From Eledone cirrhosa (Eukaryota), in the NCBI GenBank assembly GCA_964016885.1, contig OZ024748.1, positions 58,404,001 through 58,468,000 of the forward strand: 64,000 nucleotides of DNA, given 5' to 3'. Below, piece by piece: positions 23,688-60,898 of the stretch; within the stretch, counting starts at the first letter, position 1, and each line of letters begins with the position of its first letter. A model generated the notes under the pieces. It was not told where the DNA came from. It made no database searches and was given only the letters and a program-made list of their open reading frames with translations. The position numbers were made by a program, and so were the translations under genes.

Positions 23688-24536
23688 CTAGCAGCTGAGC
23701 CCGGTTGCACCCGGGGCCACTTTTTATTAAGTTAATAATTTGAAAAATATTATTGAAAGTTTATTATAAAGAAGCAGTTTCAGGAAAAAAAATAGAAATA
23801 TGCACTTGGGGCTGGACGGCGTACAATGAGAAGTGGAGCGACGTGAAAAGCGTTGTTTATTAACAGCGAAATAGCAATGTCGATGATATGCAATTTGAAA
23901 AATACTACTTACTGTTAGTGGTGGTTAACATGTATTAGAATTAAAATAAAAACACTCGTCCCTTCTTCGCAATTTAAGGGTTTTATTTCTTTTGATGGAA
24001 AACAGTGACCGTACTGCAGAATCGATTTCATAAAACGGTACTGTGAAAATGAAACGTACTGTAGAAGGCAACAGTTTATTAATCTGCATTTTCAAACTTG
24101 CATTTCATCGACATTGCTCTTTCGCTGTTAATAAACAACGCTTTTCACGTCGCTCCACGTCTCATTGTACGCCGTCCAGCCACAAGTGCATATTTCTATT
24201 TTTTTTCCAGAAACTGCTTCTTTATAATAAACATTCAATAATATTTTTCAAATTATTGGTACTGTATGTTAACAGCGAAAGAACGTGAAATTGTAAATAA
24301 CTCATCCAAGTATTAGAACAGGGGAAATAACTCACCGAACGCGATAGTACATAGACCGTTTGGGGGCCCTAGAGACCACGACTTCCAAGTTAGAGATTTA
24401 AAACCTCGTGTATTTGCTTCCTTGGCACTTTGTACATAGGTGTGTACATTTTCATGTCCGTCCGACCACGTCTACTACCATTTAACCGTGCACATCTGAA
24501 TTTCAACCACCACCCATTTCACAAATATATATTAGA
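23688..24536 (-). mobile_element. Non-autonomous Helitron (~850 bp)
   Basis: 5' A|TCTAATATATA; 3' hairpin CCCGG-gtgcaa-CCGGG then CTAG|T; sits in (TA)n with no TSD. Confidence 0.8.
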
Positions 24537-28560: not shown

Positions 28561-29029
28561 CTGGAAATTCGTTTAGCGAAAGCCTATCAAAATTTACATT
28601 TTACATTCCAAACTCGAAATTTCCTAGTAGATGTCTTAAGTGTTTATGCAATCGCAACGCAATTACTAACATAGAATATTTGAATTATATCCAAGAAGCT
28701 TTTTCAAGCAATGCTAAACGTTACTGAAAATTGTCATGTTTGTGAAGGAGAGAATCTCATTCGTTCCTATCCTTATTTGTTGTTTTTGTGCCCTTTCATT
28801 TAATTTCTAGCTTCAAGCTATATGAGGGTTAACAGAAAAGGTTTTCCTTGATAAAACCTATTAAAACACATGTATATTATTACAACAATATGACCCTCCC
28901 CAGGTATAACAATATCTGTATATATATATATATGTGTGTGTTTATGTATAAATATATGTGTATGCATATATATGTGTGTGTATATATATATATATATATA
29001 TAATGTGTGTGTGTGTATATATATATATG

Positions 29030-29087
<58 letters not shown>

Positions 29088-29088
<1 letters not shown>

Positions 29089-29300
29089 GAGGTGTGTCAG
29101 AAAAGTTCCAGGACTGATGTCACAAAAGATTTATTTCAAACCAAAACTTCACACTAAGAGTTTTCTCCTTCAAAGTCCACATCTTCAAAACGGGTCCCCT
29201 CCGGGTCGCACACGAAGATCCATGACTCCTCACCGGTGATGACTGTCCCTAGCAAGTCAGATTCGGTTTCAAGACGCTTGAGGATATCCTGGCACACTTG
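29088..29300. mobile_element. Mariner-like terminal fragment
   Basis: TA|CGAGGTGTGTCAGAAAAGTTCC resembles a mariner TIR. Confidence 0.45.
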
Positions 29301-29303
29301 CAT

Positions 29304-29800
29304 GCGAAATACGCCTAGGCAGTTCCCCCTCTCAACCAGACAATGACCCTATTCAGGCGTGTAATATATAGCTTACTGCTAGCAACCCCGCCAGTGGCAG
29401 TCAGCCGAAAGCTAGCGGGGTTGGCAGAGTATGAGTATCAATAGGTCTCAATACTACCCTAAATTAAGCATGGACAGTAGCATTGACCATCAACCTCTAA
29501 GAGAAAATATACTTAATTCTAGGTATTATGGTTTCACAGTGGAACTTTTGAATGAGAGTTGGAAATTAAAACTAAAAATTAAAAATCAAACATCAGTAAT
29601 CAAATATATCGAATAAGAGAAAGCGAAGTAGTTTCAGATGTTAAAGTCCTTTAATGATAATACTGTGATACATATTTCAATGACGACAGTGGTCACTCGG
29701 TTCGGTGCGCCAGTGCCGCCCCATCGTCAGACAGCTTGTTACCTAATAAGGTTATGTTTCCGAGGCAATCCAAATTGAGTCGACATGGGAACGGGCAAAG
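29304..29800 (-). mobile_element. Circularly permuted inverted copy of the ~600-nt HHR unit
   Basis: Its reverse complement equals 30552-30747 joined directly to 30009-30440. Confidence 0.85.
29662..29735 (-). ncRNA. Type I hammerhead ribozyme
   Basis: gctgt-CTGACGA-[stem II]-GAAA-tatgta-TC-acagt. Confidence 0.75.
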
Positions 29801-30157
29801 TACTGTAATTTACTGTACGGTACTATCATTCAGTATATAGATAATATATCTGTAACATCGATCCCCCGTTCAAAACTTCTTACTTAAACATCTCCCTACT
29901 TATTAGTTAGTATATGTGCATATATTTTTTTACTCATTTCAATCTGGATTCTCACTTGTAATTTTTTTTAATATTTGATTACAGATGTTTGATTTTTTTA
30001 ATTTTAAATATTTGATTACTGATGTTTGATTTTTAATGTCCAACTCTCATTCATAATTTCCACTGTGAAACCATAATACCTAGAATTAAGTATATTTTCT
30101 CTTAGAATTTGATGGTCAATTCTACTGTCCATGCTTAATTTAGGGTAGTATTGAGAC

Positions 30158-30291
30158 ATAGTTACGTCCCTTTACGATCTGAGTTCAAATCCCGCCGAGG
30201 TTGACTTTGCCTTTCATCCTTACGGGGTCGATAAAATAAAGTACCAGTAATGCACTGGGTAATTGCTGGCCTTGTGCCTAAAGTAGAAACA
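30158..30291 (+). mobile_element. 5'-truncated SINE with 11-bp TSD
   Basis: TSD agtattgagac at 30147-30157 and 30292-30302; empty site visible in the left copy. Confidence 0.95.
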
Positions 30292-30616
30292 AGTATTGAG
30301 ACCTATTGATACTCATACTCTGCCAACCCCGCTAGCTTTCGGCTGACTGCCACTGGCGACGTGGCTAGCAGTAAGCTATATATTACACGCCTGAATAGGG
30401 TCAATGTCTGGTTGAGAGGGGAACTGCCTAGCGAATTTCGTACAACTCTGCGGTAGTTGATGGTCAACTTCCTTCGGACCTGCGCCTACGCAGACCGGTG
30501 GGGGTGAATTGGTACTCACAAGGGAACGGGCGAAGAACCCAAGAGCACATGCTTTGTCCGTTCCAATGTCGACTCAATTTGGATTGCCTCGGAAACATAA
30601 CCTTATTATGTAACAA

Positions 30617-30690
30617 GCTGTCTGACGATGTCGCGGCACTGGCGCACGGAACCGAGTGGCCACTGTCGCCATTGAAATATGTATCACAGC
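30617..30690 (+). ncRNA. Type I hammerhead ribozyme
   Basis: gctgt-CTGACGA-[stem II]-GAAA-tatgta-TC-acagc; perfect 5-bp stem I, AUC triplet. Confidence 0.8.
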
Positions 30691-30817
30691 ATTATCATTA
30701 AAGGACTTTAGCATCTGAAACTACTTCGGTTTTTTTTATTCGCTATATACTCCGTCACTCTTATGTGGAATGATTACGTAGAGTGCTTGAATTGAATTGC
30801 ATCAATGTTTACCTTAA

Positions 30818-30857
<40 letters not shown>

Positions 30858-31737
30858 GTATATGTATGTATGTATGTGTGTGTATGTGCATAAAAAATTG
30901 TTTTGCATTAGTCAAATCTGAAAAAAATTTCGCTTATGTAAAATTTCAACCTGCGGCAATGAGAACAATTCTTTTTCAAAAGCAGCCAGTATTTTAACGG
31001 TCGGATTATTATTATCTCATATATTATTAAAACACAAATAGAATATTTACATTTTATTATTCTATCTCTTATTTAATAAATTCTTATATAAACAAAAAGA
31101 AATATATTCCAGTATACAGTCAAACTTGTTACAACTTTTCTTTTTCAAAAGAAAATTTAAACATTTCATATTTATGAATACCCTCCGGGTATTTAGCTGT
31201 ATTTACCTATTAGTACTAAGAAACTTATTATTTCATATACAGATTCTCTAAACCTCATTTGTAAAATAGTTTTCTGTTGAAATATTTTTTGTAAGATTTA
31301 GATTTCACAGAGAATAATACTTTCCGTTTTGAAATATTTCCAAACTGATTAGAGATTAAGGAAAACATTCGAAACTATTATTTGATTCATTAATAAGTAA
31401 TACGTGAGCATTTATCTCCTAGAAGGCAGCCAAATATCTTGTGTCTGACAGAAATGTAAGACCAGGAACAATATATAGTAGATATACAAATAGATATACA
31501 AATGATTTGATGCTGGTAGCTGTAACGCTGATCTACAAAGGACTCCTTGGTGGATTAAGGAAATTCGTATTCAGAACAGAAATTATCGCGATTAATTATG
31601 GAAATACATTTGGTCCGGTGTAACACACATCTGCCCAAATAACGCACATATATTGATTTCTATCACAGTATGGTTATATAATAACATATGCAAACAAAGA
31701 AGATAAATATTTAATGTAAATGTTAATTTTAATACCT

Positions 31738-38165: not shown

Positions 38166-40213
38166 TAAACATATTAAGGATAGTTCTGTACTTTAATAGA
38201 TCTTACTACTTGAGGAGATTTAATTTCATTTATTTTGCAAAGATAAAATGCGTAGTTGTTCCTGGTTGAATGTACATAGTTACGATAGATTTGCAGAATT
38301 GTGGCTATTGTATCTCTCATACGACTACCTTTTAACTCTACATCTAATTATACTGGGATTGCTCCACTTTTATCAAGAGTGATAATGTATTTCCAGGTAT
38401 CTGGAAATGTATTAAACGTATATACAACAGCTGAATATTGCTATGGTTTTAACTTAATTTCGAGGTATTATTGATTTCTAATTAAGGAAGTGTGGTTCAG
38501 CACAAAATGATACTTGTAGTTGAAGTGGTTAATTCTGTTGTTGTGTTTTGTTGTAATTGTTGTTGTTGCAAACAAATATATTTGTTTTTATCAATGAAGT
38601 ATTAAAAGCAAAATATTCCGGGTGCATTCACCCCTACAAATATCATATATAGTAAATTTTGAACATATACAACGCCAAATATATCTATATATATATTGAG
38701 CTGTTTTAATTTAATTTTCTATATACGTTTTATGTCGAGACATTTCTGAGAGAGTTAAGCAATTCGATTGTAGTTATAATCTAGAAAATGTCATTCATAT
38801 ATACATCATATCTCTCCCTTGATAATTGATAGATACCGCAGATAATACAGTTTATTTTGCTAACACTGTTTCTTCATTTCACGTAATCACATTGTGATTT
38901 ATAACTCAGTGTGGAAGGTCGGAAATGAAAATATATTTTATTCTCAAGATTCTAAAAGTAGCTTCTCTGAACTATATTGATTTTACAGGGGAATTTATTT
39001 TCTCGATGTGTCAGTGAAACCCAGCCTACATTCCCCCCCCCCCTCTCTCATTTCTCTTTAATGATGAATGTATACAAATGATAGTTAATAAAATAACCAC
39101 CTACTTGAAACAGCGCTGTATATATAACAATGAATTAAAAATCAATTCAATAATTTAAGAAGCCGCAATGTTAAAAGAGCAAACATGCAAAATTGATGTA
39201 TCTGAAAAGATCTATGCAAAAAAACATTGATTCGACGTAACAGAGAATAGTATTACAAAATAATAATAAAATGTATCAGAATAACATACGTCGCGACAAT
39301 AACACTAGCATTGTGCAATTATTTCTCTATATCTCTTTTTATTGTATACAATTACACAGACAACTATTATAATAATAATACTATATTTGTATCTTGCCAT
39401 TTCAGTTCTATTTCAAAATCAATATTGTTCTTTTTACAAAGTATTTCCGTAGATTATATTTCACTTTACAGAATATATATATATATATATTTGGGGAGGG
39501 TCATATTTGTGTAATATTGCCAGAATTAATAACAGAACACACTCACTGTTTGGTTGGTTTTCGCTTTTCGCTTCTGTGTCTTTTATATATATATATAAGA
39601 AACAGTTTATTGCAGCAAATATTCTAGCTTATGTATGTGTCCTCTCAATCTGTTGAGAATAGCTATAAGAACAGCAAATATAACTTATTGACGTTACAGT
39701 AGAATATGTCGTATTTCTGCTTGGTTAATCTGCCAAAAGGTACACCAAATAATATTCCTAAGCATTTCCATATCCAAGTGATTAATCGATGTTAGCAGAA
39801 GGACGGTCAAGTTAGAGTCAGCACGGCTCATGTACAGTGTAAAGAGTTAGGGGAAGAAATAGTTTTAATTGTGCGAGATCAGCTTCTCTTAAAAATTTCT
39901 GCTGCCCAGCTTCCGATAGAATTGTGTACTACATATTCCATCGCAAATTTGAATGATGACATTCTGATTCGGATTTAATTCAAGAATCATTGCTTCTTGT
40001 AATTGCAACGGTGATAATATATATATAATGTGTGTGTTCATTTTATTAAGGCTAAATATATTATCCTTTTATTTCAGTTTTGCGTATTCCTTTCTCTCAC
40101 ACGGAAATATATATGTATGTGTGTATGTGTGTGTGTGTATGTGTGTATGTGTGTGTGTCTGTATGTGTGTGTATGTGTGTGTGTGTGTGTGTGTAATTTC
40201 CCTAAAATGTTAC

Positions 40214-50119: not shown

Positions 50120-50570
50120 ATATTAAATAAATGGAAACTATATTTATAAAACCATATTTATTCTATTATATATATTTCAAGGGTACCAAAAAAACTTTGG
50201 TACCCTTTCATCAGATGAAATACAAAAGGTGTATCATAAATGTTGACATAGCCAAGGAAATCATATCTTATCAGTTGGATTTTCTTGGGTAGTCTACCCA
50301 TTACCCAAGAAAATTCAACTGATAAGATATGCTTTCCTTCATTATGTCAAAATTTATAAAACATTCTTCGTATTTTATCTGATAAAAGCGTACCAAATTT
50401 CTTTGGTACCCTTGAAATATATATAATAGAATAAATATGGTTTTATAAATATAGTTTCCATTTATTTAATATCATTGAATATTTACTCCAGAACCCTTTC
50501 GAGTGCTCTGAATCAGTTATAAACATTTATATTTGTTGCATTTACAACAAATTAAGTATCGCTTCTACTT
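50115..50570. mobile_element. HHR head-to-head inverted-repeat cassette with tail (same family as 21.6 kb)
   Basis: Arms 50115-50291 / 50302-50477; tail tactc..gagtgct. Confidence 0.9.
50159..50222 (-). ncRNA. Type I hammerhead ribozyme, core intact
   Basis: tatttcat-CTGATGA-aagggtaccaaa/tttggtaccctt-GAAA-tatata-TA-atagaata. Confidence 0.8.
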
Positions 50571-59582: not shown

Positions 59583-60898
59583 TTACCACCATTACCGATG
59601 CCGAGCAAGTTATTATCCTCCACGCTCGTAAGACCTTTCTATACCACGATGGATCTTACTGGATCAACAAGAAATCTCAGACCCCATTTGACGTTAGCAT
59701 GGGGGCGAGTGACTCGGCTGAAATTAGCGACCTTGTGGGCCTGTACATCCTACATAACCTGAAGAACCTCTTTACCGGCCTTACTGGAGGTTTATACCGA
59801 GACGACGGCCTCTTCGCCCTGCATAAGGTTAGCCCCAGAACCACCGATGGGTTTCGGAAAAACTTAAGCTCTTTCTTCTCTAATCTAGGATTTAGTATTA
59901 CTATAGATTCTAATTTGACTAGGGCCAACTTCTTAGATGTCACTCTCGACCTAGATACTTCCCTCTATTACCCGTACCACAAACCTAACGAGTCCCTTAA
60001 ATATATTAATGTTAATTCAAACCACCCCCAAAACATTACTGATAACCTAGTAAAAAGCGTCTCTATTAGAATATCTGGCCTCTCCGCCAACAAAGATATG
60101 TTTAATGCATCTGCCTCCTACTACAATGACGCCCTAGCCCGTAGCGGATTTAAAGATAAGATAACTTACCTAGAAACCACCGCAAAATTGCAGAGGAGGA
60201 ATAGACATAGGCAGATTAGCTGGTACAACCCTCCCTTCAATAGAGAGGTATCTACTCCGATAGCTAGGATTTTCTTCACTTTACTGAAATTACACTTCCC
60301 CATACAACATAGGTACTACACCATCTTTAATAAGAACACTATAAGACTGTCTTACTCCACCACACCTAACCTAGCTAGGAATATAGCCAACCACAACTCT
60401 AAACTAAATAAGCCAACCACCTCCGAAACCAATCCCCGGACTGGGGCTCTATGTAATTGCCTAAATAAGGAAACATGCCCACTAGAAAACAAATGCCTCA
60501 CAAACGACATCGTATACAAATGCGATGTCATCTCGGGCACCGAGGATTGCAAAAAAACTTACATCGGCATGACATCCAACACCTTTAAGACCCGCTGGTA
60601 TGCCCATACCCACTCCTTCAGAAGACCGGATAAATCAAACCAAACAACACTCGCCTCCTACGTTTGGGACCTCAAAAGGAACTCCACCCCCTTCACGCTT
60701 AATTGGAAAATACTCCAGAAAGCGCGCTCTTACGACGGAGGACACAAGGGCTGCGACCTTTGTATTTCAGAGAGTTACGAAATTTTATTCGCCAAGGGCC
60801 CGCTACTGAACAAACTCTCTGAACACTGCCCGAACTGCATGCACAAGAACTTTGCAACATTCAAACACTTTAAGCCAGTGTTAAAGCCCGATGGCTAA
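59582..60898 (+). CDS. Penelope-like retroelement ORF, 5'-truncated RT + GIY-YIG endonuclease
   Basis: Frame is open from ~59582 (upstream of the listed ATG): [51 protein letters not shown]...H, CDLC..E, C.H. Confidence 0.92.

Follow-up and report, generated by a model that had tools for sequence, protein, structure and literature searches.

A 5'-truncated head-to-head insertion of a high-copy, non-coding hammerhead element in Eledone cirrhosa, likely copied in trans by Penelope-like proteins

Introduction

The 64,000-nucleotide stretch of the Eledone cirrhosa genome analyzed here in its entirety (contig OZ024748.1; hereinafter, the window) contains, within positions 29305-30818, the same repeat on both strands, a minus stretch followed by a plus stretch, each with a hammerhead-like motif. 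On the minus strand, the end of one segment (B) runs directly into the start of another (A), and the question is whether this end-to-start junction is the trace of a circular or multimeric template. The original prediction interpreted the locus in this way, as a circularly permuted, structured unit of about 600 nt that could be a retrozyme mobilized by the reverse transcriptase (RT) of a Penelope-like element (PLE). We consider it highly probable that the locus represents a single insertion, truncated at the 5' side and arranged head-to-head. The inserted element is a non-coding tandem repeat of 1.3-1.4 kb that is present in high copy number and has a predicted type I hammerhead; Penelope-like RT/GIY-YIG proteins likely copied it in trans. 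In this view, the B-to-A junction probably reflects a template jump that occurred only once.

Architecture of the locus

Coordinates with the prefix r are positions in a natural copy of the element, L003:331-1696. In these terms, the window contains, in order, r756-1060 and r1171-1366 on the minus strand and about r590-1366 followed by r1-70 on the plus strand. Three inverted arm pairs are detected, namely 29604-29800/30552-30748 (93% identity), 29442-29577/30025-30160 (93%) and 29326-29455/30292-30421 (97%). The left, inverted arm B (29604..29800, minus strand; r1171-1366) terminates at the short 3' end of the family and encompasses a type I hammerhead (29662..29735, minus) with a predicted cut after 29667 and a mutated base in stem II. 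The extra piece A (29305..29607, minus; r756-1060, SINE absent) is attached to this end: the B-to-A junction (29604..29607, minus) connects r1366 to r756 through a 4-nt ATAT microhomology, so that the end-to-start connection seen in the original prediction does exist. The head-to-head (5'-to-5') junction between the arms is at 29800..29801; since 29801-30007, which the original prediction overlooked as part of the repeat, is element DNA as well, the arms meet without a spacer.

The right arm (29801..30818, plus) is a 5'-truncated monomer that consists of about r590-1366 and the tail r1-70 and is devoid of about 520 nt (r71-590). It includes the second type I hammerhead (30617..30690, plus; predicted cut after 30685) and the tail of about 70 nt (30749..30818, plus), which extends from the short to the long 3' end and the boundaries of which we infer to be RT start sites; a (TA)n microsatellite, the putative target, follows at 30819..30890 (plus). 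A 5'-truncated SINE (30158..30291, plus), which we take to resemble an octopus SINE, was inserted later and is bracketed by an 11-bp duplication (30147-30157 and 30292-30302). On the left, a mariner-like DNA transposon fragment with an internal deletion (29087..29306, minus), which weakly matches the Mos1 transposase (E 0.057) and has what is presumably a terminal-repeat-like start, lies outside the element and is severed where the insertion begins. The segment map, the position of the SINE, both hammerhead cores and the predicted cut after 30685 are thus located where they were originally placed.

A DNA contig departs from the window sequence at 29306; among the contigs listed from three DNA runs, none spans the locus, and the bin at the inversion junction has zero depth at 97% identity, as would be the case if the locus were an assembly artefact in a palindromic, repeat-rich region. 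These contigs are short, too short to bridge any junction, and possibly come from another individual. Against such an origin, divergence between the arms amounts to 5-7%, each arm having private changes, the SINE and its duplication are present on one arm only, and another 48 junctions display this architecture, so we regard an artefact as extremely improbable. The divergence between the arms also indicates that the copy is old.

A family of 1.3-1.4 kb non-coding monomers

A search of the 3.0-Gb genome with segment B yields 2,508 first-look candidates, and all 41 reported matches are 92-100% identical to the query. An exact pattern for the ribozyme core, which also captures an older sister family, has 2,178 genome matches compared with one for the reversed control. 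In the fetched loci, the tail runs on through the approximately 520 nt that are missing from the window and then into A again, which defines a head-to-tail monomer. Among 15 same-strand ribozyme spacings in these loci, 12 fall between 1,309 and 1,376 nt, the others being 1,455, 2,468 and 4,002; seven tandem pairs among the first 100 of the 2,178 listed matches are spaced by 1,309-1,364. None of these 15 spacings or seven listed tandem pairs is near 600 nt. The unit length of about 600 nt does not hold, given that the family monomer is 1.31-1.38 kb and that 29801-30007 belongs to the element. In L152-L153 (G000:C1:130880000-130895000), about ten monomers of 1.31-1.32 kb form two arrays that face each other head-to-head, with variants alternating in the plus array; this is a candidate source locus.

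The monomers have a GC content of 36-40% and show no sign of coding capacity. The longest ATG-initiated ORF varies from 46 to 114 aa across 12 monomers, with different strands and frames; a Pfam search with two long stop-free frames and six-frame translation detected no coding relic, and the best tblastn match to PLE proteins (E 0.049, antisense) is not significant. There is no conserved ORF. The possibility that A and B are merely the ends of a long, ORF-bearing PLE is not borne out, and the characterization of the element as non-coding, hammerhead-bearing, non-autonomous and larger than typical animal retrozymes is supported.

The 'structured' body that was part of the original prediction, in contrast, does not emerge from folding: compared with shuffled sequences, the energy z-score is -0.67 for the 496-nt minus copy and -0.88 for the plus segment 30292-30748, and all 12 of the 200-nt windows across the full monomer lie between -1.7 and +0.8, no better than shuffles. 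The first of the cited hairpins (caaccccgc/gcggggttg), the one that was scored individually, has 9 of 9 pairs in the minus copy only, with 6 of 9 in the plus copy and 3-8 of 9 in 35 other copies.

Identity between the two main subfamilies of the family peaks at 82-87% in a region that extends from roughly 260 nt upstream to 100 nt downstream of the cut site, compared with 25-75% elsewhere. The older sister family (L155-L190; 2,802 first-look candidates) is about 70% identical near the ribozyme and 75-94% identical in the tail, and has a longer stem II. PLE matches occur near 5 of its 30 loci, none of them continuous with the unit, and its same-strand spacings are 1,123 nt (L164) and 740 nt (L173); at L173, an opposite-strand ribozyme lies between the pair, hence this is not a plain tandem. 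Separately, in 5 of 118 ribozyme contexts of the family (L010, L122, L125, L131 and L154), the SINE that is also present in the window is inserted just past the ribozyme cut site, with different 5' lengths, which suggests a target hotspot. No description of the family was found in the literature on octopus Penelope elements and hammerheads, cephalopod repeats or non-autonomous Penelope elements, and Repbase or Dfam may already catalogue it.

A predicted hammerhead with a U.U-closed stem II

Both hammerhead cores in the window retain CUGANGA, GAAA and UC, together with stem I. In the plus copy, stem I is formed by 30617-30621 and 30686-30690, and the core by 30622-30628 and 30674-30677, combined with a long stem II and a self-complementary stem III. 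The core and stems are found in 105 distinct family copies, and the closing pair of stem II is U.U rather than G-C in all 105, although 30 of the loci were retrieved with a pattern that demanded U.U. The ribozyme of an intact autonomous PLE from the same genome is likewise closed by U.U. Hence the claim that both cores are intact stands for the core bases and fails for the closing pair of stem II; nor is there an Rfam match, as a search with the whole window at the gathering score and further searches up to E 5 report no hammerhead, the miRNA matches being either to (TA)n or below the cut-off. A 2017 paper reportedly deals with small hammerhead variants of PLEs and possibly already covers the U.U variant.

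Single-sequence folding and RNAalifold do not recover the hammerhead fold. When the structure is preset, 88% of the cells are paired in 24 distinct sequences and none of 500 shuffles reaches this value; the covariation score is likewise matched by none of 500 shuffles, and pairs with two-sided change are not significant (127 of 500 shuffles), all these tests being inflated by sequence relatedness. Taken together, the comparisons of family sequences support a hammerhead fold. According to PMC4209133, G10.1-C11.1 is highly conserved and metazoan PLE hammerheads are low in activity. Given that stem III is self-complementary, activity is predicted in dimers only, following the same source; in a recent survey, cleavage was reported for one of nine dimers (10.64898/2026.07.22.740005). 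Consecutive ribozyme-bearing tandem units are present in the family, and the window locus has one ribozyme per strand. Without two tandem ribozymes on either strand, no monomer can be excised at this locus, and, with a ribozyme predicted to act only as a dimer in tandem transcripts, it would be a dead copy.

Three further hammerhead-like motifs with a palindromic stem III, at 50379 (+), 56939 (-) and 48109 (-) of the window, belong to other families, and two of them resemble motifs in L117 and L118; an AT-rich match of the hammerhead scan at 23740 is probably due to chance.

The B-to-A junction is private to the locus

A 121-nt query across the B-to-A junction has 1,101 candidate matches, 40 of which were scored; only one of the 40, the window itself, spans the junction, and the remaining 39 cover the B half only. 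Two exact gap patterns for the junction have one site each in 3.0 Gb, in both cases the window, compared with 1,169 exact matches for the normal B-to-tail junction (control, 0). Same-strand junctions in the fetched loci number 107; of these, 89 are normal and a single one is r1366-to-r756. With a single occurrence genome-wide, the reading of the junction as a circular permutation is not supported.

The window pieces most likely derive from one source, judging by changes that they have in common. Minus A and the plus arm have four substitutions in common that occur in none of 72 other copies, after removal of seven further common columns as alignment-edge artefacts, and minus B and plus B have two changes in common, each present in 1-3% of 115 copies, with no other copy having more than one. 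This source contained about r590-755 and r1-70, both of which would be missing from a 611-nt circle, so a single template jump is the likely origin of the B-to-A junction. The alternative that a real circular or multimeric replicon of about 610 nt (r756-1366) served as the template is compatible with the order of the minus strand, r1171-1366 followed by r756-1060, which is what a 611-nt circle would yield, and with the start of the junction at a preferred end. It conflicts with the uniqueness of the junction and the lack of spacings near 600 nt among those counted above, and also with the plus arm, which has the same private changes and includes the sequences that the circle would lack. Moreover, if the ribozyme had made the circle, its closure would be expected at the cut site (about r1303) and not at r1366. 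In our estimation, such a template is very unlikely.

Somewhat less improbable, yet still unlikely, is that the junction arose after the insertion, with piece A being either an independent copy of greater age or what is left of a tandem left arm that lost 755 nt. The family frequently shows internal deletions and jumps (18 of the 107 same-strand junctions are non-canonical, although several of the 17 other than r1366-to-r756 are alignment gaps of a divergent subfamily), a deletion at the ATAT microhomology would give an identical sequence, and minus A, in its 5' half, resembles other loci, which score better (95.7%), more than it resembles the plus arm. The private substitutions common to A and the plus arm speak against an unrelated older copy, and the end at r1060 is not a preferred one, so that a second deletion would be needed. 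An extra piece past a short end is seen at the window locus only. In the window, the long 3' end is that of the right arm, and B stops exactly at the short end, so that the end of B is an ordinary terminus and A is an add-on.

One tail per insertion

In the family at large, there are two sites, separated by about 70 nt, at which copies terminate, and the sequence that comes next is (TA)n or (TC)n(TA)n. Such repeats are located within 35 nt of 115 of the 134 free 3' ends, compared with 26 of the 48 free 5' ends. Neighbor pairs within 5 kb, among the first 100 of the 2,178 listed matches (n = 23), comprise 15 head-to-head, one tail-to-tail and the seven tandem pairs mentioned above. A head-to-head arrangement is the rule in the family. 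The original prediction stressed an inverted rather than tandem layout; this is correct for the window, but the family shows both layouts, and the inverted one is a known Penelope trait.

After removal of duplicates by sequence context (a few of which may persist), there are 49 head-to-head junctions: 31 combine a long and a short end, one has two long ends, one has two short ends, ten, including the window locus, involve another end, and six are at a locus edge. Thus, when both ends are at preferred sites, 31 of 33 head-to-head insertions carry the ~70-nt tail on one arm only (p 1.3e-7). By analogy with described elements, one tail per insertion beside (TA)n is the signature of Penelope: an inverted, 5'-truncated partner together with a one-sided tail is presented as standard for PLEs in PMC8557442 and PMC3846280. 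As described in PMC11167929, AT-rich DNA is cleaved and extended on both strands by a PLE protein in vitro; reverse transcription begins at two internal sites, which delimit the tail, and ribozyme cleavage is unnecessary for insertion. Between this reaction and the standard inverted layout of PLEs, a circular template is not required.

Penelope-like proteins as probable helpers

The same genome harbors abundant PLEs with intact 775-aa frames, one of which contains RT and GIY-YIG domains according to Pfam, with RVT_1 scoring slightly under its cut-off. In two autonomous PLE families, copies likewise have two kinds of end beside (TA)n, the tails being about 60 nt long, and the autonomous PLE ends (10 of 11 loci scored) are long in four cases and short in six. 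Sequence similarity to these elements was not detected, which counts against the proposed helpers: a nucleotide search of 30 PLE loci with the monomer matches only at a locus that already carries the element, alignments of three PLE tails to the family tail are no better than those of shuffles (277, 269 and 118 of 300), and no pLTR homology to the monomer is found in the L112 family (3' part and pLTR) or in the ends of the L069/L115 family.

A young autonomous PLE at L112:1117-7646, in a 4,202-bp tandem, has a 476-aa frame without a credible Pfam match upstream of the 775-aa RT and GIY-YIG frame; it has many equal-scoring copies genome-wide and a minimal hammerhead closed by U.U. In a second intact PLE family (L115:4490-4530; L211-L219), the core of a hammerhead-like site deviates from CUGANGA in 10 of 10 copies, and the site is possibly a further variant or a lost ribozyme. 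The window itself contains a PLE RT/endonuclease-like fragment (59924-60814, plus) with 36-45% identity to fragments of PLEs in L047 and L074, and two likely 3' pieces of another PLE family, at 28874-28915 (plus) and 39479-39588 (minus), that match the PLE arm of L221; the former adjoins (TA)n to the left of the mariner-like fragment, and its match in L221 extends into the repeat.

Some element copies directly adjoin PLEs. Four of the 48 free 5' ends enter, within 17 nt, a retroelement ORF facing away; three of these are PLE ORFs of differing sequence, and the fourth is presumably that of a LINE. Two of the 134 free 3' ends likewise adjoin PLE ORFs. The query proteins were taken from the same loci, so these head-to-head PLE fusions are a lead and not an enrichment test. 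In the L115 chimera, the short end belongs to the element arm and the long end to the PLE arm. In the L118 chimera, it is the element arm that ends at the long site; the junction contains a 17-nt element piece (identified by eye), and the PLE arm stops about 55 nt beyond its own ribozyme, at (TA)n. The chimeric insertion in L118 is flanked by an exon with a zinc-metalloprotease-like HExxH motif (L118:2440-2560, minus), which we take to be neprilysin-like.

The head-to-head layout, the one-sided tail and the (TA)n targets support mobilization by the Penelope RT, as originally suggested, as likely. The locus can then be pictured as follows. Tandem arrays would be transcribed as multimers, and the Penelope protein would bind the RNA downstream of the ribozyme and cleave both strands of the (TA)n target. 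One cDNA would be primed at each of the two internal start sites, from both target strands, and the two truncated cDNAs would be joined 5'-to-5'. During or soon after the insertion, the left end would gain r756-1060 through a jump on the same template at the 4-nt microhomology. The left target DNA would have been lost, with the mariner-like fragment cut at 29306, and the SINE would have arrived later.

More tentatively, and with less than even confidence, a dimeric Penelope enzyme might build each insertion out of two RNAs, with one arm begun at the long start site and its partner at the short start site. The 1.35-kb ribozyme RNA would then be a partner-less, promiscuous passenger that can occupy either slot beside an unrelated RNA of a PLE family, giving rise to head-to-head chimeras, and the U.U hammerhead may release one of the largest ribozyme-delimited circular RNAs in animals.

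Comparison with known systems

How PLEs form tandem and inverted structures is described as undefined in the relevant text of PMC8557442. The approximately 2,000 ORF-less copies constitute a record of the Penelope integration reaction, and both the near-strict rule of one tail per insertion and the few chimeras with PLE RNAs bear on how these structures are built.

Like the metazoan non-LTR retrozymes described in PMC7229834 and 10.64898/2026.07.22.740005, the family consists of tandemly repeated units that are non-coding and contain a single type I hammerhead, has a GC content under 45%, and co-occurs with autonomous PLEs. It differs from those retrozymes in the length of the monomer (1.31-1.38 kb vs about 300 bp typically and 51-972 bp among those surveyed), and in having a PLE-type hammerhead with a long stem II, a self-complementary stem III and U.U in place of G10.1-C11.1. 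Furthermore, unlike the retrozymes as described there, it occurs mostly as scattered head-to-head insertions with 5' truncation, the PLE families covered here yielded no homologous pLTR partner, and circular RNA is only a candidate here. As to size, PMC7229834 mentions circles from 150 to over 1000 nt, and the tandem finder of the 2026 survey was limited to a period of 1000 (10.64898/2026.07.22.740005), so that a family with a monomer longer than 1 kb would have escaped that survey.

With the EN+ PLEs (PMC8557442, PMC3846280, PMC11167929, PMC4209133), the family has in common partial tandems, an inverted, 5'-truncated head-to-head copy, a tail that is confined to one end, insertion into AT-rich or (TA)n DNA, and two 3' ends with a hammerhead upstream. 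It differs from them in the absence of an RT or GIY-YIG ORF between pLTRs and in its tail of about 70 nt, about twice the 30-40 bp given in PMC8557442. The putatively non-autonomous PLEs of Chlamys, such as MRC1 (PMC8557442), are similar in being ORF-less and pLTR-forming, with multicopy head-to-tail insertions. By these comparisons, the family may be characterized as a large, retrozyme-like, non-autonomous Penelope-like element; given that it falls outside the size range and the canonical core of the described retrozymes and that circles are only candidates, we file it as a new non-autonomous PLE family. As such, it fits the proposal, made in PMC7229834 and 10.64898/2026.07.22.740005, that the non-LTR retrozymes of animals represent PLE derivatives that are not autonomous.
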